In this document: in pieces, positions 2,518 to 32,121 of the stretch
Layout of the letters: every line of letters starts with the position of its first letter
Position numbering within the stretch: position 1 is the stretch's first letter
Source: Minisyncoccia bacterium
Lineage (GTDB): Bacteria; Patescibacteriota; Minisyncoccia; Phycocordibacterales; UBA9973
Direction of reading: 5' to 3'
DNA: 64,000 nt
NCBI GenBank assembly: GCA_049287045.1
Contig: JBAQFC010000009.1
Span: 946 to 64,945, forward strand
The notes under the pieces: model-generated
What the model was told of the DNA's origin: nothing
Seen by the model: only the letters and a program-made list of their open reading frames with translations
Database searches by the model: none
Made by a program: the position numbers and the translations under genes

Positions 2518-2530
2518 ATATTAAATAAAA

Positions 2531-2558
2531 AAATTCCCCGAAAGGGGAATTTTTTTAT
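2531..2558. terminator. Bidirectional rho-independent terminator between convergent rpmA and rplI
   Basis: aaaaaattccccgaaaggggaattttttt. Confidence 0.7.
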
Positions 2559-3001: not shown

Positions 3002-3028
3002 TTTTTTTATTTCGTTTATTTAGTAATA

Positions 3029-4237: not shown

Positions 4238-4273
4238 ATTGAAGTTATGATATTAGATTTTTATTAATACAAA

Positions 4274-4555: not shown

Positions 4556-4619
4556 TTATGCATTATACCGCGCGAGTATATAAATTTGCAACAAATTTAT
4601 TGTTGACTATTTTCATTTT

Positions 4620-6598: not shown

Positions 6599-6636
6599 TA
6601 TGTTCTTATATTACACGCTTGGTAGAAAAAAACAAA

Positions 6637-7494: not shown

Positions 7495-7560
7495 ATAGAT
7501 ATTCTAACATATTTTAATAATATATTTATGTCCGTGTCGTTTAATATTCAAGTGTATTTT

Positions 7561-8864: not shown

Positions 8865-9836
8865 CTATTTTATCTCACAATTTACCTTAAGCTCTGCAAT
8901 GTCTGCCTCAGTCAAAGTTTGATTGTTACTTTGGTTCAATTTGTACATTATTGCTTTTGGATCATTTACATGTCCGAGACCCAATGCGTGTCCTAACTCG
9001 TGAGCGAGTACTCTCACTAGTTTTTCTCTATTACTAAATTCATAAATATCTATTTTTTTATTTACACCATCACTTTGATACACACCTTCTTCGAAACTCT
9101 CTCCTAGAGTGCCATTGATTGAATTATATTCCTCCACAGAAAGATTGAGTGTATTTACTAGGCGATTTAAAACAACAACAAGAGCGTTAATCTCATCAAC
9201 AATTTCATTAATATGAGTTTGTAAATTATTTAATTGTATTACTTCAGCATCTAGTATAGATTTATCTGTTTGCAGGGTATTATATTCTTTTTTTGGTGCA
9301 CCTCCTTGTTCATTCCAATATTTTACCTGTTGTTCATAAACTTTCTGTTTTTCATTAAAAATAATTACACGTTTTTCATAACTATTTTTAGCTGTAGCGA
9401 GCTGTGTTTTTAGGTCTGTAAATTTAATTTTAAGTGAATCATAAGATGCTTTGTTGTTCTCAACAACAATACCCACACTTGCGAGTTTACTTGTTGCTTC
9501 TTGTCGGTAATCGTAAACAAGATTTATTTTTAAATCTCCAGTATCGGATACATAAGTAAACAATTCCTTTCCAAAAGGTTTTTCCCATATGTTTTCCGCT
9601 TCAGATAAAGCACTTAAAAAATATTTTTCAGAAATACCAAACTTAGTATCGAAGGAATCAATCTTGTAGGTAATAGGTTTAGAACAAGGAGTACTTAATA
9701 AGCTAATATTAGTATTTATTTGACTAAAAATATTATCAAGGGGCGTTTCGATTTTAGTCCTTATGCTGTCTCCATATTGATACAAAATCATACTGATAAT
9801 TGCAATAGGAATAAAAATTTTTAAAAATTTTTTCAT
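8865..9836 (-). CDS. Matrixin-like zinc metalloprotease (metzincin), membrane anchored with coiled-coil region
   Basis: HELGHALGLGHVNDPKAIMY (HExxHxxGxxH + Met-turn); N-terminal TM. Confidence 0.7.
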   Translation of the reverse strand: MKKFLKIFIPIAIISMILYQYGDSIRTKIETPLDNIFSQINTNISLLSTPCSKPITYKIDSFDTKFGISEKYFLSALSEAENIWEKPFGKELFTYVSDTGDLKINLVYDYRQEATSKLASVGIVVENNKASYDSLKIKFTDLKTQLATAKNSYEKRVIIFNEKQKVYEQQVKYWNEQGGAPKKEYNTLQTDKSILDAEVIQLNNLQTHINEIVDEINALVVVLNRLVNTLNLSVEEYNSINGTLGESFEEGVYQSDGVNKKIDIYEFSNREKLVRVLAHELGHALGLGHVNDPKAIMYKLNQSNNQTLTEADIAELKVNCEIK

Positions 9837-9842: not shown

Positions 9843-12026
9843 CTAATTAGCATTACGTACTAAAAAGTATTCGTTATATGGTTGATCATCAGTTACTTCA
9901 ATTTTTTTATTAGAATTTAATAACTGATTAATATTAATTTTGCCACTTATAATTCTTTTAATGAAACTTAAAATATTAGGATCGTTGTAATCATTCCATT
10001 CCATTAAATCGTCTTGTGCAGATAATGGCATGTTTTTTACAATTTGTTCTGGATTTGGAATATTAATAGGTTCATTTGAAGCAAAAAAGTGATATCCCCA
10101 CTGTCTAACTGATTGATAGACTTCAACATAAGGAAAAACGTCAACTAGTGATCTTGCTACTGCTTGTAGGGCTTTGTCATTTTCATTTCCTCCTGGGTAC
10201 CATTGGGCCAGAATACCATTTTTAGATAAATGTGTTTGAGCGATTTCATAAAATTCTTTTGAATACAATAAACTTGATCCAGCCGCTTCTACTGGTGGTG
10301 GTGGATCAATAGCAATCAAATCATACTTTTCTGAAGTACGTTCTAGAAATCTACGCCCATCGTCTATAATTATTTGGTTGTTTGATTTAGCTAAAACCTG
10401 ATTCGCATCAGAAAAAAAATATGAAAAGAATTCCTTAACACTTGGTGTCAGTTCAACTGCTGTTGTGTTAAAGCCCCAACTTGCTGCAGAACGGAAAGTT
10501 GTACCCATACCGAAACATATTACTAATGCTTTTTTTGGATTTTGAGGTAAACTGGCTAAGGGTAAATGCGCCATTATTTTAGTAATAGGTGTTAATGTTG
10601 TCATACCAACACCATTAACCATTAAGTACTTAGATCTCATATCAGTTTGATCTAGAGTTGCAGCTAAAACCGTAGCATTATAATCGTTTTTAATAATTTT
10701 ATTAGGTGCTATCATATACTCCTCAAATGTTGTGCTAAATTTAACAGTGAGTAATAATAAAACAAACACCATAATTAATATTGGTTTACGAAGGTATGAT
10801 TGTAGAGTACTTATTTCACTTTTACGAATTAAAAACCAAATTAAAGGTAAACTAAAAAATATAATTGATAATTTTGAACCAATTAACGGCAGTAATATAT
10901 ATGAAGCCACAATTGGACCAATAATACAACCTAGTAAATTAATTGCATATGCCACTCCAGCAGTATTTGGATTTCCTTGTGATAATTTGTCAATTTGTTT
11001 CGGAGTTAAATAACCCAAAATATATGAAATTAAAAATACACACAAAATTACTCCAATAACTCCCCAACCTATGCGTGGATCTACAAACCAAATTTGTCCA
11101 ATAGAAACTATACACAATAGTTGTAATAAAATTTTAGTTGATAAAACTTTCCCTTTTTGAATATTATTTCGATAATGTAATAGCCCAACACAAGTTCCGA
11201 GTAAATATAAAAACAATATGAATGCAAATGCATAAACTGAAGTTTCTAAAATAGGTGTAAATAATCGATTCCATACTACTTCAAAACCAACAGATGAAAA
11301 TCCAGTAATAAATAATAAACCTAAAATAAACTTATCTTTTATGTTTATTTCCTTTAAAATAAAAGATTTAAATTCTTCTTTCTTTTCTTGTCGAAGAGGA
11401 TTTAATTTTAAATTTTTAGCAATTTTAATACTGATTAGTGCAATTAAAAAATTTAAAAATGAAGCGAATAATAATGTTTTTTTAAAACCTAATAATTCAA
11501 TTAATACTCCGGCAGTTAAAAATGTACCAACCATAGCACCAAATGTATTAGCTAAATATAAAAAACTAAAAATATTTTTATCCCAAGTGAAATGCTTATT
11601 TAAGAACTCCATTATTAATGGAATTGTAGTACCCATTAAAAAACACCAAGGTAGCATAGTTAAAGACAGAACTAGTGCTGATAAACCTAAGTATGCCCCC
11701 GAATTTGTTTGACCGAAAGTAAGAAGCCATAAATGTCCCATTAAAAAAAGTTTTGGTATAATTAATGCTCCTATTCCTATTCCTATTTCTGCAATACTGT
11801 AAAAATACAAAGATTCTATCTTATATTTTTTAGCTAACTTTATTAAATATTTACCAGAGATCCATGATCCTAGCACTAGTCCTAACATAAATACAGATAC
11901 AACTATTGAGATCACTTGAGCATTTATACCAAAATTTGCATAAGCTAATCTTAACCAAACAGTTTGATATAATAATGCACAAAATCCTGAGATAAAAAAT
12001 AAAAAGAAAAAAAGTTTTTTGATCAT
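9843..12026 (-). CDS. Fused polytopic membrane domain / spermidine synthase-like aminopropyltransferase
   Basis: ~470 aa of TM helices followed by LIAIDPPPPVEAAGSSLLYSKEFYE and GxG methyltransferase-like fold motifs of spermidine synthase. Confidence 0.7.
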   Translation of the reverse strand: MIKKLFFFLFFISGFCALLYQTVWLRLAYANFGINAQVISIVVSVFMLGLVLGSWISGKYLIKLAKKYKIESLYFYSIAEIGIGIGALIIPKLFLMGHLWLLTFGQTNSGAYLGLSALVLSLTMLPWCFLMGTTIPLIMEFLNKHFTWDKNIFSFLYLANTFGAMVGTFLTAGVLIELLGFKKTLLFASFLNFLIALISIKIAKNLKLNPLRQEKKEEFKSFILKEINIKDKFILGLLFITGFSSVGFEVVWNRLFTPILETSVYAFAFILFLYLLGTCVGLLHYRNNIQKGKVLSTKILLQLLCIVSIGQIWFVDPRIGWGVIGVILCVFLISYILGYLTPKQIDKLSQGNPNTAGVAYAINLLGCIIGPIVASYILLPLIGSKLSIIFFSLPLIWFLIRKSEISTLQSYLRKPILIMVFVLLLLTVKFSTTFEEYMIAPNKIIKNDYNATVLAATLDQTDMRSKYLMVNGVGMTTLTPITKIMAHLPLASLPQNPKKALVICFGMGTTFRSAASWGFNTTAVELTPSVKEFFSYFFSDANQVLAKSNNQIIIDDGRRFLERTSEKYDLIAIDPPPPVEAAGSSLLYSKEFYEIAQTHLSKNGILAQWYPGGNENDKALQAVARSLVDVFPYVEVYQSVRQWGYHFFASNEPINIPNPEQIVKNMPLSAQDDLMEWNDYNDPNILSFIKRIISGKININQLLNSNKKIEVTDDQPYNEYFLVRNAN

Positions 12027-12063
12027 ATTTGAAGTATTTTATTTAAAATAATAATATGTAAGT

Positions 12064-13758
12064 TTAATAAGTTTGAATAAGTTGTAAAAATTCTGGTGGG
12101 AGTTGAAATCCTCTTTTGTAAAGTTCTCCTGCATAAAATGCAGCATCTTTGTAATTCTTTTGGTCATAGTAATTTGCAGCCAAAGCTTTCAAGGCATCAA
12201 TATGGTTAGGATTAATTTCCAGTGTTTCTTTCCATTTTATTTCAGCTTCTTCAATTTTTTCTTGTTTCCAATACAATAATCCTAAATTAAAATACGCATT
12301 ATCATAATTTGGATTAATTTCTATTTCTTTTTTATATTCAATTTCAGCTTCTGTAAATTTATTTAAATTAGCGTAAGTAAGACCTAGATTGTTGTGGGTC
12401 ATTGGTTCATTAGGGTTAAGTTCTAGTGTTTTTTTGAATTGAATTTCTGCCTCCAACATATTCCCATCCAAAAAATTCATTGCGCCTAAATTATTACTAC
12501 TAAAAGCATAACTTGGTGATGTTTCTGTCGCATTTTTCCAAAACGCTAGTCTATTAACAAAATTTCTACTGTGCACCATTGTAATTACACTAAATATAAT
12601 TATTATGCTACTAATGATTATTAGTATACTTTTCTTTTTCAAGTCAATTTTTTTAATGAAATCAGTTTCAAGCAGGATTATAAAAATCCCAATTATAGGT
12701 AAATACAATCTGTGTTCACTAAAATTAGCAACAGAACTAGGATCTGGGCGGATAAATGAAGGCAACAAAAAAAACATAAACCACATTAATCCAAACAAGA
12801 TATAGTTCCAGCGTTTACCCTTGGTAAGGAATAATATTATAGTTAATAAAATTATTGAAACAATGCCATAAACAAATGTCGTGTCTTTCATTATGGGTAA
12901 TACGCTTAAGTTAAATGGAAAAAATATTTTACCTAGGAGTTGAACTAATGCAGGAAGACTAGAGAAAACTGATTTAATCATATTGATTAATGTTGCAGGC
13001 ATAGAACCTTCAAGGGCAAAATATCTAAGTAAAACCCAGATTCCAACTGCACCAGAAGATCCAATTAATAAATAAAATTTATTATATGTCTTATTTTCTT
13101 TATTCATAAAGAATAAATACCAAAATATTATTGGTAAAATGAATATTGCTGATTCTTTTGTAAAGAGAGCTAAACTAAAAAATAATAAAGACCAAAGTAA
13201 ATTACTTACTTTTTTTTCTTTAATTTCTTTAATAAGAAAAATAAAACTTGAAAGGATAAAAACTGCTAATAAAGAGTCGTTTCTTCCTGGAATCCAAGCG
13301 ACAGCTTGAGTTAAAACAGGATGAACTAAAAATATTATAGAAAAAAGTAATGCAAGTTCTTTGCGATAATCTAGTTTTTTTAGGAAACTAAACAGTAAAC
13401 ATGTTGCCAAAATATGTAGCCAAATATTGGTAAAATGATAAATAAAAGGAGAAATTCCACCAATTTGGTAATCAAATAGAAATGATAGAGTTAGAATTGG
13501 ACGATAATAAAAAGCGAGTATTTTTGTTGAGTTAAATACATCAATTTGAAAAAAATGCACAATATTTGAAAAACTACTGAGAAGATTCGTATTACCTAAA
13601 ATTAATGCGTTATCATCTAAATAAGAAAAATCAAAAAAAATCGCCTGAAAATAAACAAATAATCCCAGCGAAATAATAATTCCAAATGGAATCCAATTTA
13701 TTGAAAATATTTTATCTATAAAACTAACTGAATAATTTTTTAATGATTTGTTTTTCAT
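12064..13758 (-). CDS. TMTC/PMT-like GT-C membrane glycosyltransferase with C-terminal TPR repeats
   Basis: N-terminal ~400 aa multi-TM (DUF1736/PMT-like), C-terminal 4-5 TPR repeats ([41 protein letters not shown]...). Confidence 0.55.
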
Positions 13759-16308: not shown

Positions 16309-16342
16309 ATAAAAAAGCCTCTCAGTTGAGAGGCTTTTTTAT
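16309..16342 (-). terminator. Rho-independent terminator after Cys-rich repeat protein gene
   Basis: aaaaaagcctctcagttgagaggctttttt. Confidence 0.7.
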
Positions 16343-16355
16343 TGACTAGCTTATT

Positions 16356-18506
16356 TTAATCGTTACCTTTGCATTGTTCACATTGAGATCTGACACCTTC
16401 TGGTACATAGGAACACGACGGTACTGCAGCAAAGTTACTACAGTTGATACTAGGCACTGCGCCAGATGGTGGCGTATATATACCAGTAGGAGGGGTAATT
16501 CCAGCTCCTGTTGGGATATCATCTCCTGATGGACCAAAACCACCTGTAGGTATCTTGAAATCAGATCCATCTGGAATATCACTTTGTTTAAATCCTTCCG
16601 GAATATTTTCTGGTTTAAAACTCTCTGGCATTTTCGGTTTAAAGTTGGCCATACAAGCAGTAACAAGTGAAGTAACTACTTCCTGACCAGCTGCACCACT
16701 TTGGATTTTAGCCATCATCGCATCATTAATTTTATTTTTCACACAATCACGAATTTCTTGAGGAGCTTGGCTTAGTTTATCTTCCATCATTTTTAGTGCT
16801 GAACTTTTTAGCACACCAGCACAATCCTGCATAGCCTTTCCTACTTCTTGTCCAGCTCCTGCATTTTCACCTTTTTCGTATGCTGCTACTTTTTCTTTTC
16901 CTAGTTTTTCTTCCAAACATGCTCGTGCTTCAGGAGGCATTTGGCCAATACCAGTTTGGAATTTTTTCATACCTTCTATTTTCATGTTTTCAAAACATTT
17001 TTTGAAAACATCACCTTGTTCTGGTGTTGGAGCAGTACCTTCTTTTATTTTTTCTAATCCCCCATCACCCAATTCTTTATTTAAGCAAGAGATGGTCTCT
17101 GGTGATGCCTGTTCTAATGCACCTTTCATCTGTTCTACTAGCTTACTCATATTTTTTTCAAAACAATTTTTTATTTTCACGCCCATTTCTGGTCCAGGCA
17201 TAAATTTACCACTTTCAATTTCGCCTATTATATTTTCACCAAAGTTATCCTTTAAACATTGGATTACTTCTTTTGGTGATTGATCAAGTCCTGATCGTAA
17301 TCTCCCCATTCCGTCTTCAATCTCTTTTAGTTTATCAGCCGGGATAATATCGTGTTCTTTCGCAAACTGGAAACAAGCTTCTTGGTTGGCTGAATCATTA
17401 CAAAATGATGCACAAGAATCCTTAGAACGACATCCACCTGGTCCTTTACCACCAACCTTTTTAGCTAAAACTGCATCTTCTGGACTAATAAGTCCTGCTT
17501 TTTCAGCAAAGGTTAAACATTCAGTTATATTGTTTTCACTGTCACAATATTTCTGACAATCGGCTTTTGTTTTACATCCGCCTGGTGATTGACCAGAATT
17601 TATAAGAGGCAATACTTTTCGTGCAAGAGCTGCATCTTCTGCGTTGACGAATCCTGCTTTCTCAGCAAAACCTAAGCACTCTTCAACATTAGCTGGAACA
17701 GCACAATAACTTGAACAGGAAACTTTATCCTTACACCCTCCTGGCATAGTAGCACCAGATTTCAGTGCACTGGCTACTTGTTTAGCCTCTTTCAAAGCTC
17801 CCGCCGGAATAAGATCATGCTTCTCTGCGAAAGTTAAACATGAATCAATGTTCTTTAAGTCACTACAGAAAGCTTCGCAGGAATTTTTGTCTTTACAAGC
17901 TCCTGGACCTTCTCCTTTTAATACATCTGCAAACTTTTTGGATTGTTCAGCTTGGTCTTTTGTAATCAGACCACTTTTTTCTCCATAAGAAATACAAGCT
18001 GAGATATTTTCTTGTTTAGCACAAAAGGATTGACAATCTGATTCACTTTTACAACTACCAAGTTCAGCTATTGGAAATTTTGTATCTGGTTTTGCTGTTT
18101 TTCTTAAATGACCTACAAGGCCAAAAGAACTATCTGTAACTACACCATCAGTAGAAAAAGTATAAACTCTACCCCAAAGATTTAGTTTATTATCGTTGGG
18201 GCTGATTGTTCTGTAGTTATAAGTTCCGATTGTGCCTGAGCCTTCATTAAAACCGGTCACTGACCAGTTTGTGGTAGAAGGGTTGTATTTAACAGTATAT
18301 GTCTCACCAGCCTTGAGTGTACCCATTGGATCCTTAATACTCGTCCAACCGGAGTCATCAAAGGTCGCAGTATCAAAGGCTACATAGAAAACTTTACCGG
18401 AATTTATATATGCAGACCAATCATTGGCAGTCGATTGCGCACTTACTTGAGACACACCTAAAAGACAAAGTAAACTCAGCACCAGTGTAAAAATATTTTT
18501 TTTCAT
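16356..18506 (-). CDS. Large secreted Cys-rich tandem-repeat protein (signal peptide, beta-rich N-domain, 5x ~50-aa C-x5-C-x3-C-x9-C repeats, 4x two-Cys repeats, Pro/Gly-rich Cys-containing tail)
   Basis: Start taken at MKKNIFTLVLSLLCLLGVSQVSAQS (18506) rather than ORF-track 18587; repeats read directly in translation. Confidence 0.6.
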   Translation of the reverse strand: MKKNIFTLVLSLLCLLGVSQVSAQSTANDWSAYINSGKVFYVAFDTATFDDSGWTSIKDPMGTLKAGETYTVKYNPSTTNWSVTGFNEGSGTIGTYNYRTISPNDNKLNLWGRVYTFSTDGVVTDSSFGLVGHLRKTAKPDTKFPIAELGSCKSESDCQSFCAKQENISACISYGEKSGLITKDQAEQSKKFADVLKGEGPGACKDKNSCEAFCSDLKNIDSCLTFAEKHDLIPAGALKEAKQVASALKSGATMPGGCKDKVSCSSYCAVPANVEECLGFAEKAGFVNAEDAALARKVLPLINSGQSPGGCKTKADCQKYCDSENNITECLTFAEKAGLISPEDAVLAKKVGGKGPGGCRSKDSCASFCNDSANQEACFQFAKEHDIIPADKLKEIEDGMGRLRSGLDQSPKEVIQCLKDNFGENIIGEIESGKFMPGPEMGVKIKNCFEKNMSKLVEQMKGALEQASPETISCLNKELGDGGLEKIKEGTAPTPEQGDVFKKCFENMKIEGMKKFQTGIGQMPPEARACLEEKLGKEKVAAYEKGENAGAGQEVGKAMQDCAGVLKSSALKMMEDKLSQAPQEIRDCVKNKINDAMMAKIQSGAAGQEVVTSLVTACMANFKPKMPESFKPENIPEGFKQSDIPDGSDFKIPTGGFGPSGDDIPTGAGITPPTGIYTPPSGAVPSINCSNFAAVPSCSYVPEGVRSQCEQCKGND
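16736..18059 (-). repeat. In-frame tandem coding repeats (~150 nt units) within Cys-rich protein gene
   Basis: repeat units GGCK.K..C..FC........C..FAEK.GLI...A...K visible 5 times, then a related 2-Cys unit 4 times. Confidence 0.6.
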
Positions 18507-18516
18507 TTTGTTTAAA

Positions 18517-18771
18517 TTATTTAGCAAAAGGATTTGTATATCCTGATTTATAAGGATTAGTTTCGACCGAATTAAATACATTAACATTTGGAATCTTTTC
18601 TAATGGCTGTTCTTCTCCAACAGCATCCGAGACAACTCCTCCAAAAGAGGCAGCTTGTGTTTCTGTTTTTATTTCTTCAGCTGTTTTTGTTTCTTGTTTT
18701 TTACCAACAAAAAACCAAGCTGCTAAAATAATTAAAATTACTACAATAATTGCTATTATTATTTTCTTCAT
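18517..18771 (-). CDS. Small membrane-anchored protein immediately upstream of Cys-rich repeat protein
   Basis: 84 aa; N-terminal TM IIIAIIVVILIILAAWFFV; stop 11 nt before downstream start. Confidence 0.4.
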   Translation of the reverse strand: MKKIIIAIIVVILIILAAWFFVGKKQETKTAEEIKTETQAASFGGVVSDAVGEEQPLEKIPNVNVFNSVETNPYKSGYTNPFAK

Positions 18772-18863
18772 GTAATTCTATTTATAAACTTATAATAAAT
18801 TCGACGACATGTTTTTATTATAACAAATTAGTAAGACGCAAATCTCTATAGATTGTGGATATT

Positions 18864-24191: not shown

Positions 24192-24285
24192 AAATTAATT
24201 ATACTACTTCTAAGTTTATACGTTCAATTTTAATTTAAAATAAAAAAACATCCCTTACAAAGAGATGCTTTTACTGACATTTTTA

Positions 24286-24873
24286 TCATATTTTTTTATT
24301 AGCTTGTGCCAAAAATAATTTATAGCTACAGTTTACAATCTTGTCATCCATGTATCCAGCATACCCATGTTGAAAGAACGTGATTCCTGTTGGATTAATC
24401 CAATACTGTGCAAAAAAATTTCTTGGATCGTTGTCGTCATTTTTATATACATCAACAAGAATAGATATTATCTTACTTTGATCATTTTTAAATGTATGAA
24501 AATGATGTATGTTATTCAGACTATCACGAAGAATATAATCGTGTTCTGTCCAAAAACGATATTCTCTTTCAGTAAAATCAGGAGTTCCATGTTTTTCAAC
24601 ATAGTTGGCTAGCCTGTTAAACTTTCTTTTACTCATTGCTAAGGTCGGTACAGATATTTCTTCTTTAGGATCTAAATAAAAATATTCATCCATAGATGTT
24701 GAAATATTTGTATTACTTGTTTGAGTAACTTGCGATTGTTTTACTTTATTAGAACAACTAACAAAGATAAAAATAAATAAAGTTAATACGAAAACTGAGA
24801 TTACATTTTTCATGATATATAGTTTTAATTGGGTTACCACAAACCCCTTATATTTAGGATCTTTGGTAACCAA
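24286..24873 (-). CDS. Putative lipoprotein (probable start at internal MKNVISVF..., lipobox FVSC)
   Basis: signal + L-x-x-C lipobox-like motif. Confidence 0.4.
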   Translation of the reverse strand: MVTKDPKYKGFVVTQLKLYIMKNVISVFVLTLFIFIFVSCSNKVKQSQVTQTSNTNISTSMDEYFYLDPKEEISVPTLAMSKRKFNRLANYVEKHGTPDFTEREYRFWTEHDYILRDSLNNIHHFHTFKNDQSKIISILVDVYKNDDNDPRNFFAQYWINPTGITFFQHGYAGYMDDKIVNCSYKLFLAQANKKI

Positions 24874-24945
24874 TCAAAACATTTTTAAGGAGCTAATTAA
24901 CTAACTTAAGTATAGCATAATTATATTAAAAAGTCAATAGATATA

Positions 24946-24963
24946 AACCTTATAAAATAAGGC
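24946..24963. repeat. Minimal R1-type hairpin CCTTAT-aaa-ATAAGG (followed by gcttata) upstream of bcp
   Basis: aaccttataaaataaggcttat; same stem arms as the long R1 elements. Confidence 0.4.
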
Positions 24964-25024
24964 TTATATAACTTATTAACTTTTTTCATATGGTACACAC
25001 ATATATAAGTGATATAGTTTATAT

Positions 25025-25474
25025 ATGCTCAAAGTAAAAACTCTAGCTCCAAATTTTAAACTTTTAGACCAAGATGGAAAGGAACATTCACTTGTTTACC
25101 ATCGTGGTTCTTATGTTCTTATTTATTTTTATCCCAAAGATGATACACCTGATTGTATAAAAGAAGCTTTCAGTATACGTGACTTATATAAGGATTTTAA
25201 AGCTAATGATATTAAAGTTTTTGGTATAAGTCCTGATTCAATAGAAAGTCATAAAAAATTTGCAGAAAAATATAATCTTCCATTCACTTTATTATCTGAC
25301 CCTGAAAAAAAAGTTATCCAAATGTATGAAGCAGATAGTATTATTTTCTGTAAACGAATTTCATATCTAATAGGCCCTGACGGAACGATAGAAAAAGTTT
25401 ATCCCAATGTAGACCCCGCTAAACATGGCATTGAAATACTTAACGACTTTTATGATTTACATTTTAAACGGTAA
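25025..25474 (+). CDS. bcp: Thiol peroxidase Bcp/PrxQ (peroxiredoxin)
   Basis: LIYFYPKDDTPDCIKEA matches Bcp FYPKDDTPGCT. Confidence 0.8.
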   Translation: MLKVKTLAPNFKLLDQDGKEHSLVYHRGSYVLIYFYPKDDTPDCIKEAFSIRDLYKDFKANDIKVFGISPDSIESHKKFAEKYNLPFTLLSDPEKKVIQMYEADSIIFCKRISYLIGPDGTIEKVYPNVDPAKHGIEILNDFYDLHFKR

Positions 25475-25507
25475 GAAAAAATATAAAATAGATGACAATG
25501 ATAGATT

Positions 25508-25975
25508 CTATTTATTTATCACTGTGACAATAGCCGATTCAAGTTTTGTTGGTTCATCAGTTCCGATTCGATAGATTTTTCCGTTCTTCATAATTAATTC
25601 AACCGCATCAAAACCTGAAACACTATATATCCACATTTTGGGCCACAGCCACAATTTTATTCCCCATCCATAATACCAATGATTCTTTACTGTTCTAACT
25701 GAAGCTATTTGATTAAGTGCGAACTTCCTGGTAAAAATTCCGTAACCAAATTTGATCCGGAGGTAGTTTTCATCAGTCGAAACCGTCAGCGTGGCAAACG
25801 ATGCAAGAATAAACACAATCAACACCATCACAGCAGTAACGAGAAAATTTGTGCCGGAGTCGACTGAAGGAGGTTCGGCCCTGGCCGTAAGATGAGCCCA
25901 TGTGAAAAACACCAGCACGGCTAGCGTAATAACCAGCATCAGATATCCAATTTGAGTGTGTTTATATGAAACCAT
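25508..25975 (-). CDS. Membrane protein with C-terminal bacterial PH-like domain (tentative)
   Basis: 2 TM then beta-rich ~90 aa region; weak resemblance to bPH_2. Confidence 0.35.
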   Translation of the reverse strand: MVSYKHTQIGYLMLVITLAVLVFFTWAHLTARAEPPSVDSGTNFLVTAVMVLIVFILASFATLTVSTDENYLRIKFGYGIFTRKFALNQIASVRTVKNHWYYGWGIKLWLWPKMWIYSVSGFDAVELIMKNGKIYRIGTDEPTKLESAIVTVINK

Positions 25976-26012
25976 AAATATATTATATCAAATAAAGTTA
26001 AAAATACGAGTT

Positions 26013-26067
26013 GACCTTATTGGACAATATTGGAGGCATTTTTAATGCAGAATGAGGTTTAAATATC
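26013..26067. repeat. R1 intergenic element copy A (gaccttattggac...ttggagg...tttttaat...gaggtttaaa)
   Basis: aligned by eye with copies at 26607, 27343, 28051. Confidence 0.55.
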
Positions 26068-26155
26068 TTATTTATATTTCTTTAACTTCAATAATATCTT
26101 GAGTGATAATCTTTGAAGAATATTAAGAATCAGAATGTTAAAATCTTTTTCATAA

Positions 26156-26560
26156 TTATTTATTTAGATAAGTTATAGTTAATTGTAATACTGTTGCAAA
26201 TGACACCCACAATAAATAAGGGATATTTATATAAACAACCCATCTAAGTTCTGGTAATGCATTCCAGACAACAAAAAGAGCCCATATAAGAGTTGTAAGA
26301 ACTAGAACAATATCAACAGCTGCAAGAAGATTATTTTTCAGCCCAAATTGGATGGGGGTAAAAGCTAAATTAAAAATAAGATTTAAAATAAAAGGTAATA
26401 CTATTATCCAAGAAAGTTTGGCATTAAAAGCCTTATAAAAAACTGCCCCAAAAGAAACAAAAATAATAGCGTATAAAAGAGTCCAAACAGGACCAAAAAT
26501 CCAGCTAGGTGGTGCCCAGGTAGGTTTGATTAGATGTTGATACCAATCATATGTGTTCAT
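26156..26560 (-). CDS. TspO/MBR-family tryptophan-rich membrane protein
   Basis: WYQHLIKPTWAPPSWIFGPVWTLLYAII matches TspO N-terminal signature (W..L.KP.W.PP...F.PVW..LY). Confidence 0.55.
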   Translation of the reverse strand: MNTYDWYQHLIKPTWAPPSWIFGPVWTLLYAIIFVSFGAVFYKAFNAKLSWIIVLPFILNLIFNLAFTPIQFGLKNNLLAAVDIVLVLTTLIWALFVVWNALPELRWVVYINIPYLLWVSFATVLQLTITYLNK

Positions 26561-26606
26561 AATAAAATTATATCATAGTTGATATCCGATATTTGGATTT
26601 AGTGCT

Positions 26607-26649
26607 AACCTTATGGGACGCTGTCGAATCTATTTTAATAAATAAACAA
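26607..26649. repeat. R1 intergenic element copy B
   Basis: aaccttatgggacgctgtcgaatctattttaataaataa. Confidence 0.5.
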
Positions 26650-26680
26650 TAAAAAAGGGCTTCACGTTACATGAAGCCCT
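26650..26680 (-). terminator. Rho-independent terminator
   Basis: gggcttcacgttacatgaagccc + T-run on minus. Confidence 0.65.
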
Positions 26681-26689
26681 TAATAAACA

Positions 26690-27193
26690 TTAATAAATTC
26701 TACGATGCTGTCGTATTGGTTTAGTCAATTCAATACCATCATCATAATGTCTGGAATTAAGATTTTTAATTTTTTCATAAAGCTTTTCGGAATTATATAA
26801 AACATCAACTGGTGATTCCTGATCTTTAAAAAGATGTCCGAATAAACCAACATAATCAGAATTTGTTTTCCCATAAAGTTTTATATAGGACTTAGTTTCA
26901 AGCGAGGAAAAAGAAATTAATCCACCCAAATACACATAAGAATATATAGGTAAATCTACAAAAACGATTGCTCCCGGATTATTATATTCAATCAAAACTT
27001 GATTGTTCTTTGTTTTAGTAATGCCATTTTCTGGTACATCAATAAGTTTGTAACAATTATAATTTGGGACGAACGAAAAGTGTATTGTTTCATCAAAAAT
27101 TAATAGTTTGTCACCCGCGAGAATATCCTTTACCTGTTTCTTGATTATAAAACTATTTGAATCAGGTAATAAGAAAGAATTTATTTTTTTCAT
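26690..27193 (-). CDS. Hypothetical protein
   Basis: ORF 167 aa. Confidence 0.4.
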   Translation of the reverse strand: MKKINSFLLPDSNSFIIKKQVKDILAGDKLLIFDETIHFSFVPNYNCYKLIDVPENGITKTKNNQVLIEYNNPGAIVFVDLPIYSYVYLGGLISFSSLETKSYIKLYGKTNSDYVGLFGHLFKDQESPVDVLYNSEKLYEKIKNLNSRHYDDGIELTKPIRQHRRIY

Positions 27194-27267
27194 ATTTTAT
27201 AGATTTAAATTGTTTAATTGATTGATTTACTTTATTCTCCATTTAGAAGCACAAGGTAAATCAATCA

Positions 27268-27437
27268 TTAACAAATAAACCAAATATCAAAGAGCTATTA
27301 TTGTTTGGATAATAGAGTATTTATATCAATATGTCAATTACTGACATTATGGGACAAAATTGAAACCTTTTTGATACAAAATAAGGCTTAAATTCAGTGC
27401 TGTTTGTCTAGTGCGACGTTGGAACATTTTTGAAATC
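27268..27437. repeat. Composite R2+R1 element (R2: aaataaaccaaatatcaaagagctattatt-hairpin-...tgtcaattactgaca; R1: gacattatgggac...ttgaaacctttttgat...aaaataaggcttaaa) plus partial second R1 core (cgacgttggaacatttttgaaatc)
   Basis: direct sequence comparison with 28768-28871 and other R1 copies. Confidence 0.55.
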
Positions 27438-27448
27438 TATTTAACTCT

Positions 27449-28018
27449 CTAACGTGATTCACCCTCAAAATCAGGCACGACAATCCCCCATTGCATTGTT
27501 GCTGGATTAAGTTTTAAATATGTACTTTTACCGACAGAAGGGATGGCCGTCATCGGTTCATTCGATTTACGTTCTGTATAGTTAACCACGATTACATTTT
27601 TATGCTGCGAATTAGGGCTAATTTCAGTAGTTTGCGGAGCTATCCTATCTCCCAATAAATATCCATCAGAGCCGGCGTATCCAGTGTCTGTTTTTAGAGC
27701 AGCCATAACATAAAAGAAAGTGCCTGAGCCACCGCTGTTCTGGGTGAGAAGAAAAACGACATCTTCTTGGCCATCATTGTTTAAGTCTGTTTTTAGTTCG
27801 TTACCAAAATATTGAGTGGTAAGCTTCGAAACAGAACCTGGTGTAATATCTGTTTGAGCGGCACCGTCTTGCAGTTTTATTTTTTTGCCTTCGATGACAT
27901 ACTCTATATTTTTGTAGCCAATTTCCACAACCGTTTGTTTGCGTACATAAGCATTTAACATAAAAAATCCGACAACAATAACAACAATCATCAGAAAAAA
28001 TAAAAAGGTTTTTTTCAT
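27449..28018 (-). CDS. Hypothetical secreted/membrane-anchored protein
   Basis: ORF 189 aa, N-terminal TM. Confidence 0.4.
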   Translation of the reverse strand: MKKTFLFFLMIVVIVVGFFMLNAYVRKQTVVEIGYKNIEYVIEGKKIKLQDGAAQTDITPGSVSKLTTQYFGNELKTDLNNDGQEDVVFLLTQNSGGSGTFFYVMAALKTDTGYAGSDGYLLGDRIAPQTTEISPNSQHKNVIVVNYTERKSNEPMTAIPSVGKSTYLKLNPATMQWGIVVPDFEGESR

Positions 28019-28024
28019 GTAAAC

Positions 28025-28033
28025 ATTATAGCA
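28025..28033 (-). promoter_or_regulatory. Extended -10 (TGcTATAAT) 6 nt upstream of ATG: leaderless-type promoter
   Basis: minus-strand reading cgTGCTATAATgtttacATG. Confidence 0.4.
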
Positions 28034-28050
28034 CGCAGGAACAATTTGCT

Positions 28051-28102
28051 GACCTTATGAGACGATGTAGGAAACTTTTTGATGGAAAATAAGACCTAAA
28101 CC
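28051..28102. repeat. R1 intergenic element copy D
   Basis: gaccttatgagacgatgtaggaaactttttgatggaaaataagacctaaacc. Confidence 0.55.
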
Positions 28103-28124
28103 CCATATCTTTCAATAAATCGAA

Positions 28125-28166
28125 TAAAAAAAGCCGTATCTTTAGAAAATCTCTAAGGATACGGCG
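28125..28166 (-). terminator. Rho-independent terminator
   Basis: gccgtatctttagaaaatctctaaggatacggc + T-run on minus. Confidence 0.6.
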
Positions 28167-28187
28167 TTCACTATTTGTATAGTGTAT

Positions 28188-28688
28188 TTATTTTGAAATA
28201 GTATAAGCAATTCCTGTATTACACGGTAATTGTTCTGATAAATCTAAGCCCGAATAGAAGTATTGATCTTCAATTTTTTTAAGGCAAATAGTTGTTAACC
28301 AATAACCTTGAGGGTCGTAACAAAGTTTACCGATTCTTGGTATTACAACTTGTTTAAAGTTACCAAAATTTAATTTTTCAAAATTATCAGCTATCAAACA
28401 GGCAATTTCAAAGTAAGGTTTCTCTAATTTAACATTTAAGAGTTTTTCAACTTTTTGTTTATTCATTGGCTTGATTATTATAATCTCAGTATCACCACGA
28501 AATGGTGAATTGAAATTATTGTCATTATTTAAAACAAATTCAAAGACCCCGTTATTATTACTAGATGTTTTCTTAGTAACAATATTGAAATGTTTATTTT
28601 TTAAATAATTCAGCCATTGTTTTCCAGACCTATCTTGTGGTTTAATTGTGAGACGAATAAATTCATCATTAGATTTAATACTATTCAT
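28188..28688 (-). CDS. Hypothetical protein
   Basis: ORF 166 aa. Confidence 0.4.
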   Translation of the reverse strand: MNSIKSNDEFIRLTIKPQDRSGKQWLNYLKNKHFNIVTKKTSSNNNGVFEFVLNNDNNFNSPFRGDTEIIIIKPMNKQKVEKLLNVKLEKPYFEIACLIADNFEKLNFGNFKQVVIPRIGKLCYDPQGYWLTTICLKKIEDQYFYSGLDLSEQLPCNTGIAYTISK

Positions 28689-28767
28689 TTTTATTTTTGA
28701 TTTAAATTAGTTTGCAATATTGCTCTGTAGAAATCAATAAATGACGTCCAGAGAGCAATACACAAAA

Positions 28768-28871
28768 AAATAACCAAATATATCAAAGAACTATTATTAC
28801 ATAAAATAATAGCATATTTTATTCATTTGTCAATTACTGGCAGTCTGGTATGAAGTTGGAACTTTAATGAC
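28768..28871. repeat. Composite R2 + partial R1 element (aaccaaatatatcaaagaactattattacataaaataatag...tgtcaattactggcagtctggtatgaagttggaactttaatgac)
   Basis: ~70% identical by eye to 27268-27345; internal 8-bp hairpin ctattatt/aataatag. Confidence 0.55.
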
Positions 28872-30120
28872 TAGCGAGAAGCTTTGTTAATTCAACTATT
28901 ATTCCTTGAGCAATAACATTGCCAGCAACTCCTTCAAATATAGTCTTTAGAGAAGTAAGGGTTGTTTTAATTTTTGATTGATTGGGTGTATCTTTATAAA
29001 TCTCCTTTTTTAATTCTATTGCTAGTGTTTCGATGTTTTCTTTTTCTTCTGTTCTAAGTTTTATTTTAGTAAGAAATTTTTGCATTTGACCGACTAGATC
29101 AATAACTTTTTCTTGAGAAAATCCATTTACTTGTTTAATAGAAACATACGCTTGGTCAGTAATACTTCCAATCGATCCTGCAAAATTTTCTATATGGCCA
29201 ATACTATATGATGATGATGATGTTTGTTGGACAAACATAGCAACAGAACCCTGTATATTTTTTAATGCTCTTTTAAGTTCAGAGACTGTAGTAATAATTC
29301 TTTTATCATCATTTTTTGTATTTGGGTCAAATATATATTCCATCAGTTCTATCGCTTCGGTAGTTTTTACAGGAAGTTCTTTTTTTATTTCGGGTAATGC
29401 TTTCTCAACTTCCTTTGTTTTTATTATTCTTGGCTCAAAAATAAAAGGTGAAGTAATAGTTTCAGAATCTACGTATACAGGTACATGATCAGAGATTTTT
29501 CCTAGAGAGATAGAACTATCCATAAGAACAGTCGCTCCATTTTTAAATATCTCACTGTCTGCAAGAATACTAAATTGATTTTGAACAGCTTGTCCGTATG
29601 CCAAAACTGTCGTTATGCTTTCTGACAACTTGATTACTTCGTTAGCTTTGATGTGGTATTCCGTAGCCAAACGAAGACTTGAAGTAACTGATGGGATGTT
29701 TATTCTATCTATCGCTTCTATAGTAAGTCTGCCGTGAGTTAGAGCTATAGCTGATGCCGATTCTATTGATTTGAGTAGCCCGTTATTTTCAGAAAATACT
29801 GATGCGACATTATTGACCCCAACCATAAAATTTCTGGCATCGCTGATAGTTTTTATTTTCATCTCCAAAAGATTTTCTCCTAGAGCATTTACTCCCAGTA
29901 CTCCTGCTTGTGTGGCGAGTGTGAGCGATTGATAATCACTCCTTGCGGTTATTCCTACTATATCTACAGTAGATGCTCCACAAGCCAGGTCCAAGGTACT
30001 CTTATAGCCAGTATTTACAAAACTATCAATAGACCTAGCAGTGCTTATATTCTTTGGGATTTTTATGACACTAGGGTCAGTTTCCTCATCGTTCTTCTTT
30101 TGTTCATTATTATCTGCCAT
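28864..30120 (-). CDS. Hypothetical protein (418 aa, no recognisable domain)
   Basis: long ORF with consistent codon usage. Confidence 0.45.
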   Translation of the reverse strand: MADNNEQKKNDEETDPSVIKIPKNISTARSIDSFVNTGYKSTLDLACGASTVDIVGITARSDYQSLTLATQAGVLGVNALGENLLEMKIKTISDARNFMVGVNNVASVFSENNGLLKSIESASAIALTHGRLTIEAIDRINIPSVTSSLRLATEYHIKANEVIKLSESITTVLAYGQAVQNQFSILADSEIFKNGATVLMDSSISLGKISDHVPVYVDSETITSPFIFEPRIIKTKEVEKALPEIKKELPVKTTEAIELMEYIFDPNTKNDDKRIITTVSELKRALKNIQGSVAMFVQQTSSSSYSIGHIENFAGSIGSITDQAYVSIKQVNGFSQEKVIDLVGQMQKFLTKIKLRTEEKENIETLAIELKKEIYKDTPNQSKIKTTLTSLKTIFEGVAGNVIAQGIIVELTKLLASH

Positions 30121-30230
30121 AGTAATTGTAATTTATGCTTAAAACATAGTGATTTTAGCATATTTTGCTTTGAAAATAAAGATTTTTTGTTATAGTTACA
30201 TTGTTTAGTCACAATAAAACACTTTTAACG

Positions 30231-30273
30231 TTTGATACGAAGTTGGAACCGTTTTATTGGAAAATAAGGATTA
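30231..30273. repeat. R1-related element copy F (gatacgaagttggaaccgttttattggaaaataaggattaa)
   Basis: shares ttggaac-N5-tt..t.g and aaaataagg with other copies. Confidence 0.45.
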
Positions 30274-30358
30274 ATTACCTTAAAATTTTTCTGTTTTAAT
30301 TTATCTGGTCATATTGAACTATCTTTTAGTTTTTATAAAAAAGAGTATACTTATAAAT

Positions 30359-30631
30359 ATGATTTATCTTATAACGTATGATTTAAATAAACCTGGAAAG
30401 GATTATAATTCTTTATATACAGCACTACGACAGTGTCAATACATAAGGGATACTGGATTAGATTCTGTCTGGTTTGTTTCTGTTGCGACATGGAATTCCA
30501 CACAAATTTATGAATATCTCCGTGTTCATCTTGATGTAAACGATAGACTTTTTATTACACAAATTACGCGTGGAACCAATTATGGCTGGATGAATAAAGA
30601 AGTCTGGGATTGGATTAACGCTCGTGTTTAA
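30359..30631 (+). CDS. VapD/Cas2-fold endoribonuclease-like protein (tentative)
   Basis: MIYLITYDLNKPGKDYNSLYTALRQCQYIRDTGLDSVWFVSV...NDRLFITQI aligns by eye with VapD (YALAFDL...DLRQEL...GSVYV...RDIRAFKV) and Cas2 (LVLVTYDV...SVFEC...DSLRIY); ORF track starts at 30314. Confidence 0.35.
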   Translation: MIYLITYDLNKPGKDYNSLYTALRQCQYIRDTGLDSVWFVSVATWNSTQIYEYLRVHLDVNDRLFITQITRGTNYGWMNKEVWDWINARV

Positions 30632-30640: not shown

Positions 30641-31195
30641 TTAAACCATGTTGTAAGCAATTGTACGATAATCCATCACAAGAACATACGGTAATAGTTT
30701 GTATTTATCTTTAATTCTTTCATCTTTTGTAAGTATTGCTATTTTTTTCTTTTTATCTGTAAAATCATCCGCCATAACAAATATTGATATATCTCCAGAT
30801 TCTATTATAGGTTTTGCTTTATCAATTTGTTTACAAAAATCTATTTTAGATACTGAATATTCACTCATTCCTTCTAGTATCGGAAATACTTCTTCAACTA
30901 TGTCTTTGTAATCTAAACGATTATTATAATTTACTTCAAGATGGCGACATGTCTCAGTGAGAATATGTGGAGTAACGTAAAGCTTATTAAGATGTTGAGT
31001 TACATGTAGCAAATCAAATACAACATTAATTTGTTCGAATTCCGACAATATATCTAGTTTTTTTTTACTGATTCTTGTTTCAACTAAACCATTGATCAAT
31101 TCATAAAGAACACACGTGTCGATAATTATCCCATTTCTTAAAAAAGGTTCTATTGTTATACCGTAATCTTCTAGTCTTATATTATCTAAAGTCAT
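30641..31195 (-). CDS. PIN-domain (VapC-like) nuclease
   Basis: GIIIDTCVLYELI N-terminal PIN motif; start taken at MTLDNIRL (31195), 1 nt after stop of upstream ORF. Confidence 0.5.
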   Translation of the reverse strand: MTLDNIRLEDYGITIEPFLRNGIIIDTCVLYELINGLVETRISKKKLDILSEFEQINVVFDLLHVTQHLNKLYVTPHILTETCRHLEVNYNNRLDYKDIVEEVFPILEGMSEYSVSKIDFCKQIDKAKPIIESGDISIFVMADDFTDKKKKIAILTKDERIKDKYKLLPYVLVMDYRTIAYNMV

Positions 31196-31196
31196 T

Positions 31197-31559
31197 TTAA
31201 CTCTTCGAGAGTATTGGCGGTGTCGTTTTTTCTTCTGGGGTTGTGGCTGTATCAATTTTATTTTCAGCCCCTCCTTCTCCTTCTTCTGTAACAGTAAATT
31301 TTCTGTCAGGTTCATCTCCTCCAATTTTTTTTATAGACACTGTTTTATTTTCTGTATTTACTACTGCAATATATTTGCTAGGAGTTGGATTTCCTAGGTT
31401 CTCATAGAAACTGCAAGTTAAATTCCATATTTTAGAATCTGTACCTTCTACTGGAACTAGTTCCTCCACACTAAATTTTATTAAACCCAATTGTCCTTGG
31501 GCGCTAGAAAATGCAGCTCTTGCTAGTGTTATTGCTTCAACAGATAAAGAATCACTCAT
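31197..31559 (-). CDS. Hypothetical protein translationally coupled to PIN gene (possible cognate partner)
   Basis: 120 aa; stop codon abuts PIN start. Confidence 0.35.
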   Translation of the reverse strand: MSDSLSVEAITLARAAFSSAQGQLGLIKFSVEELVPVEGTDSKIWNLTCSFYENLGNPTPSKYIAVVNTENKTVSIKKIGGDEPDRKFTVTEEGEGGAENKIDTATTPEEKTTPPILSKS

Positions 31560-31647
31560 ACTTTTGATTATATCACATTATTATAATAATAAAATCCTTC
31601 AGTATTTTCCTTAATACATCCAGGAACAACGAACCTATTTCAAGTTT

Positions 31648-31665
31648 GCTGGGAGACATGGACTC
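31648..31665. repeat. 18-bp direct repeat of tRNA-Gln 3' end (gctgggagacatggactc): att-like
   Basis: identical 18-mer at 32050-32067. Confidence 0.6.
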
Positions 31666-31727
31666 CCTTCGGTAAACTCAGGGTTAACTCCATATCTAAA
31701 TCCAAATCTTATAGCACTTCAACATAC

Positions 31728-32015
31728 TCAGTGTAAGCCTTTCAGTTCTTCAAGACAAGTATTAATACCTAACTTACCATCAATGAGCATTTGCTTCTTT
31801 GTGCGACTCCATCTTTTTAATTGTTGTTCTCTTTTTGCTGCTAAATCCTTACTTTGATATTTTTCACAATATACAATTTTTATCTCAGAAAACTTTTTTG
31901 TAAAAAATGATTCTTTATTTATATGTTCAAACAACCTTCTTCTTAAATTATCAGTTATTCCGATGTAAAAAGTTTTCTGGTCGCAAAGAAGTATATAAGT
32001 AAAATGTTCTTTCAT
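31728..32015 (-). CDS. GIY-YIG nuclease family protein (UPF0213-like)
   Basis: FTYILLCDQKTFYIGITDNLRRRLFEH; ORF-track N-terminal extension is read-through of tRNA-Gln. Confidence 0.65.
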   Translation of the reverse strand: MKEHFTYILLCDQKTFYIGITDNLRRRLFEHINKESFFTKKFSEIKIVYCEKYQSKDLAAKREQQLKRWSRTKKQMLIDGKLGINTCLEELKGLH

Positions 32016-32050
32016 TATTACAAATCGTTTACACTGAGCCTGCCGAAGTG

Positions 32051-32121
32051 CTGGGAGACATGGACTCGAACCATGATTCACGGCTTCAAAGGCCGCTGTC
32101 CTACCATTAGACGATCTCCCA
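32051..32121 (-). tRNA. tRNA-Gln (anticodon UUG)
   Basis: Cloverleaf folded by hand: acceptor TGGGAGA/TCTCCCA, anticodon stem GCGGC/GCCGT, loop cuUUGaa, T-arm CATGG-TTCGAGT-CCATG. Confidence 0.8.

Follow-up and report, generated by a model that had tools for sequence, protein, structure and literature searches.

Short R1 repeats in a one-directional array at a tRNA-Gln gene of a Patescibacteria chromosome: candidate junctions of mostly single-gene cassettes

A 64-kb stretch of a Patescibacteria (Minisyncoccia/Paceibacteria) chromosome (contig JBAQFC010000009.1 of assembly GCA_049287045.1; this whole stretch of 64,000 nucleotides is called the window below) carries seven copies of a short intergenic element, R1, among a run of small genes, which raises the question of what such an element is for. 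A preliminary description of this DNA had read R1 as a long-range stem with covariation, enclosing a -35-like core and selected as a secondary structure. Our best reading, to which we give an even chance, is that R1 is instead an att-type (attC-like) junction of mostly single-gene cassettes that have accumulated at the 3' end of a tRNA-Gln gene. The host is an ultra-small bacterium of the Candidate Phyla Radiation (CPR), or Patescibacteria; the layout of the array is integron-like, and its anchoring at a tRNA gene is tycheposon-like.

The window has a G+C content of ∼31%. Between 18.6 and 31.6 kb it consists of small genes, almost all of them on the minus strand; most match no Pfam family, the exceptions being two peroxiredoxins and TspO (26156-26560). 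With a profile made from the local copies, seven R1 elements of ∼35–55 nt were detected, with E values from 2e-12 to 1e-6; the next best match in the 64 kb had an E value of 3. All seven are on the same strand and are confined to one stretch of 4.3 kb (26008-30279). They are listed here with their nhmmer E values, together with a partial copy.

26008-26066, minus strand: R1 copy A, full length, diverged; between TspO (26156-26560) and g25508; E = 9e-9.
26602-26660, minus strand: R1 copy B, core retained, A/T-rich arm decayed; after the g26690 terminator; E = 2e-8.
27338-27396, minus strand: R1 copy C, full length; its distal GTCAGT abuts the promoter of an R2 module (described below); E = 4e-11.
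27398-27445, minus strand: R1 copy Cp, core only; in tandem with C, ∼4 nt past the g27449 stop codon; E = 1e-6.
28046-28104, minus strand: R1 copy D, the best full-length copy of the window; after the g28188 terminator; E = 2e-12.
28836-28884, minus strand: R1 copy E, core only; overlaps the g28864 stop codon, its distal end abutting the second R2 promoter; E = 2e-7.
30221-30279, minus strand: R1 copy F, full length; upstream of g28864; E = 1e-9.
24946-24966, minus strand: a partial R1 arm, AACCTTAT / AAAATAAGGCTTA, beside a TTGACT-17-TATACT promoter; 13 nt in common with copy C.

The four copies named earlier, at 26013, 26607, 27343 and 28051, were all present, each fitting GACCTTATGRGAC with at most one mismatch. 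Longer R1 patterns gave three matches against 0.23 expected by chance, a number reached in none of 100 shuffles, and four matches against 0.24. The genes next to the copies are mutually dissimilar and thus not paralogues, so that R1 is not a by-product of gene duplication. As all the neighbouring genes are on the minus strand, R1 is to be read as the reverse complement. In this direction, the stop codon is followed by ATTTAAsCCTTATTTTCCATCAAAAA, GGTTCCAA and CATCGTnCCAnAnnnCCAGC, where R1 ends. The first of these blocks is an optional A/T-rich arm that precedes the core, GGTTCCAACATCGTnCCAnAnnnCCAGC, and the 'short' copies consist of the core alone, CAAAAAGGTTCCAACATCGT.CCA.A..CCAGC. The blocks conserved in a consensus of 29 copies are TTATTTT, AAAAAGGTTCCAA, CCA and CAGC, and the element holds 7-bp direct repeats located 11 bp apart (GTTCCAA / GTACCAG).

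We searched public genomes and metagenomes with degenerate patterns followed by profile filtering, and obtained ∼50 further copies of R1 from 23 other loci. They occur as 2–5 copies per few kilobases, always on one strand, and are homogenised within a genome. The loci bearing a taxonomic name are all from Patescibacteria (Paceibacterota, Adlerbacteria, Nomurabacteria, Moraniibacteriota and one labelled Saccharibacteria). We counted the flanking open reading frames (ORFs) of 53 copies from 24 loci, including the window. Among these 81 ORFs, 76 were antisense to the plus orientation of R1, and just two of the 53 copies were located inside an ORF. The gap between the stop codon and the core was mostly 0–40 nt across the loci and up to ∼120 nt in the window. 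The next start codon followed R1 at either 40–60 nt or ∼100–170 nt across the loci and at ∼28 to 150 nt in the window; this variability had been pointed out in the preliminary description, which was right in not taking R1 for just a fixed promoter element. Cargo that recurs among 150 ORFs around the arrays includes NUDIX, HD, HAD, Ham1, RidA, peroxiredoxins and methyltransferases.

Several other origins of the element were tried. R1 offers two codon-like frames (with TGA/TAA ends) and might have been left over from the 3' terminus of a coding gene, yet no long ORF enters any copy. Three scans of viral contigs for R1 gave chance matches only. About 35 G+C-rich viral contigs that matched one R1 pattern all did so in one conserved coding motif, VWDDVGTFDG, the similarity extending over only ∼23 nt. 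Exact-protein look-ups for other contexts of the cassettes of the window returned one 2.4-kb contig or nothing.

The array of the window is headed by a tRNA gene, and a fragment of the same tRNA recurs within the array.

32050-32121, minus strand: tRNA-Gln(ttg), the array head, beside holB and co-oriented with the cassettes; found by ARAGORN and Rfam.
31728-32015, minus strand: GIY-YIG nuclease ORF, the first cassette, between the tRNA-Gln 3' end and the 18-nt copy below; Pfam PF01541, E = 2e-14.
31648-31665, minus strand: an exact 18-nt copy of the tRNA-Gln 3' end; two exact matches against 0.01 expected.

The 18-nt copy occupies the place of R1 between the GIY-YIG and g31197 cassettes, and is followed by AAA...TGATATAAT-N7-ATG of g31197. 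As this is the usual grammar of the genes downstream of R1, the partial tRNA holds an R1 position within the window. Partial tRNA 3' ends were also observed at junctions of two other loci, L071 and L010. Array heads similar to that of the window were found at tRNA-Gln(ttg) in L010, L018 and L080, at tRNA-Gln(ctg) in L062 and at tRNA-Ser(tga) in L040, most of the other R1 loci being too short to show a head. In L040, the tRNA-Ser ends in ...CACCACCTCCGC (...CTCCGC), and its two R1 copies end in ...CTCTCCGC (...CTCCGC) and ...CGCCCGCC (...CCCGCC). All the other copies that were compared with these have CA at that position, mostly as ...CAGC, as does the tRNA-Gln end, ...CCCAGC. The resemblance of R1 to the tRNA-Gln 3' end is limited to the start of the core, GGTTC.AA (T-loop), and to its end, CC(C)AGC (acceptor).

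Two further observations concern these tRNA ends. The GIY-YIG ORF and its flanks (31648-32121) could be read either as a minimal integrated unit or as an insertion of the homing type at the tRNA end. In a more distant member of the Patescibacteria (L135, 2988-20465), a long, packed, one-directional run of accessory genes begins right after tRNA-Gln(ttg); it contains DpnI, AbiEii, NUDIX, Ham1, RelB/YafQ and a homologue of g25508, and R1 is absent from it. The tRNA-Gln island is, therefore, wider spread than the R1 element. The homologues of g25508 that we examined in CPR bacteria at a greater distance (L132-L137) likewise lay in tRNA-linked accessory-gene islands, with no R1.

Comparison of related loci showed where the cassettes have been exchanged. 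Three related contigs from sediments (L034, L054 and L071) have a common right segment, CAGTGTTTTTAACTATATAACATAAG... (CAGTGTTTTTAACTATATAAC...), with 1–2 mismatches per ∼90 nt. This segment begins exactly after ...CCCAGC in all three, and their left sides differ: a gene (geneX) with its R1 in L034, another gene (geneZ) with its R1 in L054 and, in L071, the 23 nt GGTTCGAATCCAGGTCCCCCAGC. These 23 nt match the 3' end of the tRNA-Gln of L018 without a difference, and no 5' half of a tRNA accompanies them. Moreover, geneX and its R1 (95.5% identity over 689 nt) precede two different cassettes, one of which recurs behind the R1 of another gene. In this comparison, R1 moves with its upstream gene, with the exchange point at the distal end of R1.

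A close relative of the host gave a second comparison. L018 and L127 belong to one metagenome-assembled genome, with holB 98% identical and the DNA 92% identical to the window. The part from R1 C outward (R2, g26690, R1 B, TspO, R1 A, g25508 and onward) is common to the window and this relative, and the cassettes that L018/L127 have between tRNA-Gln and R1 C are wholly different. The homology between the window and L127 ends at 27394, which is the junction of Cp and C. It is thus next to the tRNA that the array varies, as it would if new units came in from that side.

The reading of R1 as a cassette junction would work in the following way. A unit would consist of its own promoter (TGnTATAAT near the ATG, or an R2 module), one ORF and then R1. 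A putative site-specific recombinase, acting in trans, would couple the R1 of a free cassette, presumably a circular intermediate, to the tRNA 3' end or to a resident R1, with the exchange at or just past ...CCAGC. Newcomer cassettes would enter at the tRNA side and the older ones would be displaced outward. In its full form, this makes a cassette-capture system of CPR bacteria analogous to integrons, where a non-palindromic R1 of 35–55 nt ends each promoter-bearing cassette, the tRNA 3' end is the primary site and the recombinase is encoded elsewhere or by a helper. That fuller proposal is possible, and we put it forward tentatively, with the balance tilted somewhat against it.

A number of observations weigh against these proposals. 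Four of the five breakpoints between the window and L127 are not at R1, and other processes also reshape the island. A 1.3-kb part of the window (24200-25538; Bcp, the partial R1 arm and g24286) is absent from L127 and is not bounded by R1. Also absent from it is 16313-18861, having an ORF of 743 aa. L127 has in turn two genes that are extra to the window, one of them His_Phos_1 and the other of 159 aa, and one breakpoint falls at an ATTGACA promoter box. Homologous recombination between repeats of 35–55 nt could yield part of the shuffling. Neither circular cassettes nor precise empty sites were observed. The co-variation of the tRNA-Ser and R1 ends comes from one locus and concerns 1–2 bases; in the tRNA-Gln arrays, CAGC alone tracks the tRNA end. 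The local alignment of R1 with tRNA-Gln is weak, 129 of 2000 shuffles being as good. In L131, the genes begin 9–13 nt past R1 or past tRNA-like ends, leaving no room for a promoter, from which it follows that R1 is transcribed there.

The search for a recombinase belongs with these points. When the 150 flanking ORFs were examined by clustering and Pfam, no recombinase in or beside the arrays was among the top recurrent families, and this applies to integrases, resolvases and transposases alike. No integrase was found in or beside the array of the window itself. Its 64 kb contain a single recombinase gene, which is 24 kb away from the array.

685-1572: Xer-type tyrosine recombinase; best NCBIfam model XerA-type, below the curated cutoff; best PDB match XerA (5hxy).

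We rejected this gene as an integron integrase: it resembles XerA/XerD, and against IntI4 it reached no better than 1e-6. Its product is probably the chromosome-dimer resolvase, and nothing links it to R1. As a separate observation, the R1 array of L131, from the Moraniibacteriota contig JBAQEZ010000003.1, is headed by prophage-like genes (1-8252; terminase, N6/N4 methylase, S24/LexA-type repressor and SduA), and an integrase may lie just past the examined stretch.

Among the known systems, integrons and the clusters of attC sites lacking an integrase (CALINs) come closest in layout. As in these, the ORFs of the R1 arrays are one-directional, unrelated and mostly small, and each is followed by a repeat of ∼50–60 nt, the position of R1 being at the 3' end of the cassette ORF. 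The repeat moves with the upstream gene and the exchange is at its far end; the cassettes nearest to the insertion point are the most variable; and toxin-antitoxin-like pairs are present within the array. As in a CALIN, the array has no integrase. Homogenisation of the copies of one genome is another trait that R1 has in common with the attC sites of chromosomal integrons, where toxin-antitoxin pairs are also often present. However, the 29-copy consensus of R1 lacks the inverted R''/R' core sites of attC (RYYYAAC...GTTRRRY): its gene-proximal ATTTAAs varies at the last base, and its distal end is CC(C)AGC, with no GTTRRRY. R1 also lacks the foldable imperfect palindrome of attC. Unlike integrons, the R1 array is anchored at a tRNA 3' end and not at an attI beside intI, there is no IntI, and most R1 cassettes bear their own promoter.

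Tandem integrative elements that are inserted at tRNA genes and separated by partial tRNA copies are described for Prochlorococcus islands and tycheposons (bioRxiv 10.1101/2020.12.28.424599). The R1 array resembles the islands described in that work in being hypervariable and located beside a tRNA gene, in that successive integrations at one site would displace older elements deeper into the island, and in having partial tRNA 3' ends at junctions. It differs in that its units are ∼0.5–1.4 kb, mostly of a single gene and without integrase or replication genes, and in that most of its junctions are a dedicated element of 35–55 nt, present in many CPR lineages, rather than a partial tRNA. With the pdif modules of Acinetobacter plasmids and the integrative mobile elements exploiting Xer (IMEXs), the array has in common small cargo between short sites and, in the mechanism proposed here, a recombinase encoded elsewhere; the sole tyrosine recombinase of the window is of the Xer type. 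However, R1 does not have the 11-6-11 architecture of dif-like sites, and its repeats are direct, not alternating inverted. Both canonical attC and dif/Xer architectures were rejected for R1 on the basis of the 29-copy consensus. In full-text literature searches, we found no published description of such arrays in CPR bacteria.

The regulatory signals around R1 were then relevant to whether the element acts in gene expression instead. These signals are as follows.

25982-25990, minus strand: extended -10 box TGATATAAT, 6 nt before the ATG of g25508 (sequence reading).
26567-26575 and 28025-28033, minus strand: TGnTATAAT, with the same grammar.
27194-27337, minus strand: R2 module ahead of g26690; TTGACA-17-TATTAT (27337 to 27309), 11/12, then a leader of ∼110 nt.
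28689-28833, minus strand: R2 module ahead of g28188; TTGACA-16-TATTAT with TG (28833 to 28806), 11/12, then a leader.
26655-26681, minus strand (26681 to 26655): intrinsic terminator of g26690, before R1 B.
28128-28170, minus strand: terminator of g28188, a G+C-rich hairpin followed by a T run, before R1 D (sequence reading; not listed by a simple scan).

Genes downstream of R1 have TGnTATAAT located 6–7 nt before the ATG, and the same grammar is present in many related loci. In the window, it covers 25973-25990, 26558-26575, 28016-28033 and 31559-31575, and such a spacing would imply leaderless mRNAs. R1 D lies 17 nt upstream of TGcTATAAT, which reads as the promoter of g27449. No other site of the region is as promoter-like as the two R2 promoters (11/12). 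The R2 module of ∼150 nt can be aligned up to the ATG before three unrelated genes, two in the window and one in L018 (5455-5625), and we take R2 to be an ordinary minus-strand promoter plus leader, as judged from its sequence. The 'hairpin' CTATTATT/AATAATAG that had been assigned to R2 is there as an inverted repeat, and it overlaps the -10 box of this promoter. The accompanying motif TGTCAATTACTG is the reverse complement of an R1 end plus the minus-strand -35 box TTGACA; its recurrences at 21868 and 24931 correspond to further minus-strand TTGAC(A/T) promoters. The inverted repeat over the R2 -10 box could be an operator or a 5' hairpin.

The core of R1 had also been described as -35-like (TTGGAA/TTGAAA). 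That strand is opposite to the neighbouring genes, and copy F alone gave a weak plus-strand promoter (9/12). Other plus-strand promoter readings of the TTGGAAC core, namely, an extracytoplasmic function (ECF)-type GGAAC-TTTT, a sigma-54-like CTGGTAC-N4-TTGG and PhoB-like 7-bp direct repeats, were excluded by a spacing one base short of the sigma-54 consensus, by the lack of a -10 partner and by the opposite direction of 76 of the 81 ORFs.

The next question is whether some conserved protein that binds DNA, such as a regulator or a nucleoid or insulator protein, controls the accessory genes through R1 as its cis site, with the shuffling due to homologous recombination between the repeats. The element is conserved at the level of sequence and not of structure (TTATTTT, AAAAAGGTTCCAA, CCA, CAGC), it contains the two 7-bp direct repeats with a spacing of 11 bp (GTTCCAA / GTACCAG), and the cargo is rich in house-cleaning and stress enzymes (NUDIX, HD, HAD, Ham1, RidA and peroxiredoxins), all of which would suit such a site. 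Many copies of R1 end 8–31 nt from a TGnTATAAT promoter. Moreover, R1 and the promoter region are co-inherited with the downstream gene when the window is compared with L017 and with L127; R1 A and g25508 align with L017 at 73.7% across 536 nt. However, between the end of R1 and the -10 box the distance varies without phasing: it takes values of 8, 9, 11, 12, 16–18, 22–24 and 31 nt, and helical phasing was rejected, since the spacings cluster at 12 and 23 nt and one third of them are out of phase. A terminator often lies between R1 and the following promoter. In the comparison of L034 with L071, R1 moves with the upstream and not with the downstream gene. A regulator site does not explain why a partial tRNA-Gln 3' end substitutes for R1, and the restriction of R1 to one stretch of 4.3 kb out of 64 kb also argues against it. 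We regard this explanation as unlikely, although it comes next in likelihood after the cassette junction.

The position of the terminators also bears on the possibility that R1 acts as RNA, in a 3' untranslated region (UTR) or between cistrons, for example as a signal for RNA processing or stability that mimics the 3' end of a tRNA ('tRNA punctuation'). In the window, the terminators precede R1 (B and D), and in L018, L062, L034, L054, L021 and L011 they follow it. As the side of the terminator varies, R1 takes no account of where transcription units end, which is what one would expect of a site acting at the level of DNA. Together with the 8–31 nt to the -10 box, this indicates that R1 is neither a fixed part of the promoter nor consistently in the 3' UTR. 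Consistent with an RNA function, R1 is mostly within ∼40 nt past the stop codon and precedes the terminator in several loci, and hence is transcribed there. The promoter-free genes of L131 that start 9–13 nt after R1 or tRNA-like ends fit the same idea, as do the g25508 homologue of L136, which begins 7 nt past tRNA-Ser(gct), and the strict orientation of R1 to the genes. However, R1 forms no consensus structure on either strand, has no mimic of an acceptor or T-arm and matches nothing in Rfam. Copies B and D of the window come after terminators and before promoters and are probably not transcribed with either gene. The breakpoints of cassettes at the R1 end are also not accounted for. An RNA function is, on this evidence, decidedly improbable.

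Short intergenic repeats located just past stop codons are also known as repetitive extragenic palindromic sequences (REPs), bacterial interspersed mosaic elements (BIMEs) and miniature inverted-repeat transposable elements (MITEs), and R1 could have been a selfish repeat of this kind, spreading by transposition into intergenic DNA. It is indeed short, intergenic, present in multiple copies and homogenised within genomes. However, R1 is neither palindromic nor dispersed, we found no terminal inverted repeats and no target duplications for it, and it keeps a single orientation to the genes (76 of 81). The copies of a locus form one array, the rest of the 64 kb of the window having none, and no gene for a REP-associated tyrosine transposase (RAYT) or another transposase was seen nearby among the families of flanking ORFs. 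We consider this origin very unlikely.

The stem proposed earlier was examined by folding and by alignment. When the seven copies were folded on both strands and compared with dinucleotide shuffles, the z-scores ranged from -1.24 to +1.27, and the proposed stem was the minimum-energy fold in copy A only. Among the five full copies of the window, no pair of the stem ACCTTAT/ATAAGGT was changed on both sides, and 63% of the cells were paired against a shuffle mean of 67%. What had been taken for compensatory changes, CCTTAT/ATAAG and ACCT/AGGT, are identical base pairs. Aligning more copies (29 full-length ones from 20 loci) gave covariation no support: the stem was paired in 52.2% of the cells against a shuffle mean of 51.9%, and partners slid by 1–3 columns paired as well as or better than the proposed ones. 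RNAalifold gave no consensus pairs from the R1 alignment on either strand. At the gathering thresholds of Rfam, the window yielded only three tRNAs, and a scan of 25900-30400 at E ≤ 10 gave nothing at any R1. In relatives, the 5' arm is GTCTGG or CTATGG instead of CCTTAT, with the 3' arm ATAAGG retained, and many 'short' copies lack the 3' arm entirely. The long-range stem with covariation is thus refuted.

A perfect CCTTAT-aaa-ATAAGG hairpin does exist, as the preliminary description had it, at 24948-24962, occurring once in the window against 0.02 expected. Even with this hairpin and the fold of copy A on its side, an RNA structure or DNA cruciform selected around a -35-like core has next to no credence left, given the z-scores, the absence of compensatory pairs, the pairing of 29 copies at the shuffle mean, the lack of RNAalifold pairs, the unconserved 5' arm and the 'short' copies without a 3' arm. 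A recombination site had been offered among the earlier possibilities, and that suggestion fits the positional and comparative evidence, although the structural argument made for it fails. The evidence for recombination comes from the cassette breakpoints and the equivalence with the tRNA 3' end, and so does not rest on structure.

Some of the neighbouring genes and elements deserve mention. The product of g25508 (25508-25975) is a membrane protein of 155 aa without a Pfam family, for which we obtained 3685 homologues; the best 120 of these are 73–99% identical and carry labels from several CPR lineages. To judge by these identities, the conservation appears unusually strong for an 'island' gene. 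At 30641-31559, the stop and start codons of g31197 (120 aa) and of a protein with a weak PIN domain overlap, and this pair near the array head looks like a toxin-antitoxin system. In L131, two conserved elements of ∼120 nt (∼9330-9445 and ∼12020-12150), GGGTCGGG..CCCGTTTGAGGTGACCT..AGGGCTAGAGG..GAAG..CTATAGAG, are located between R1 and the start codon. They have a tRNA-3'-like end, ...CCCCAGC, and no Rfam match, and may be an undescribed leader RNA.

CPR bacteria, or Patescibacteria, have genomes of ∼1 Mb in which few mobile elements can be recognised, and little is understood of how they come by their accessory genes. To our knowledge, covariance models for attC, such as those of IntegronFinder, are not built to recognise a platform of the R1 type. 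If R1 is the junction of captured cassettes, CPR bacteria would have an integron-like platform for gene capture with a simple signature that can be searched for in metagenomes. It would provide a general route by which tiny genomes, poor in mobile elements, gain and shuffle accessory genes, and its cargo (NUDIX, HD, HAD, peroxiredoxins and many unknowns) would bear on the episymbiotic lifestyle of these bacteria.

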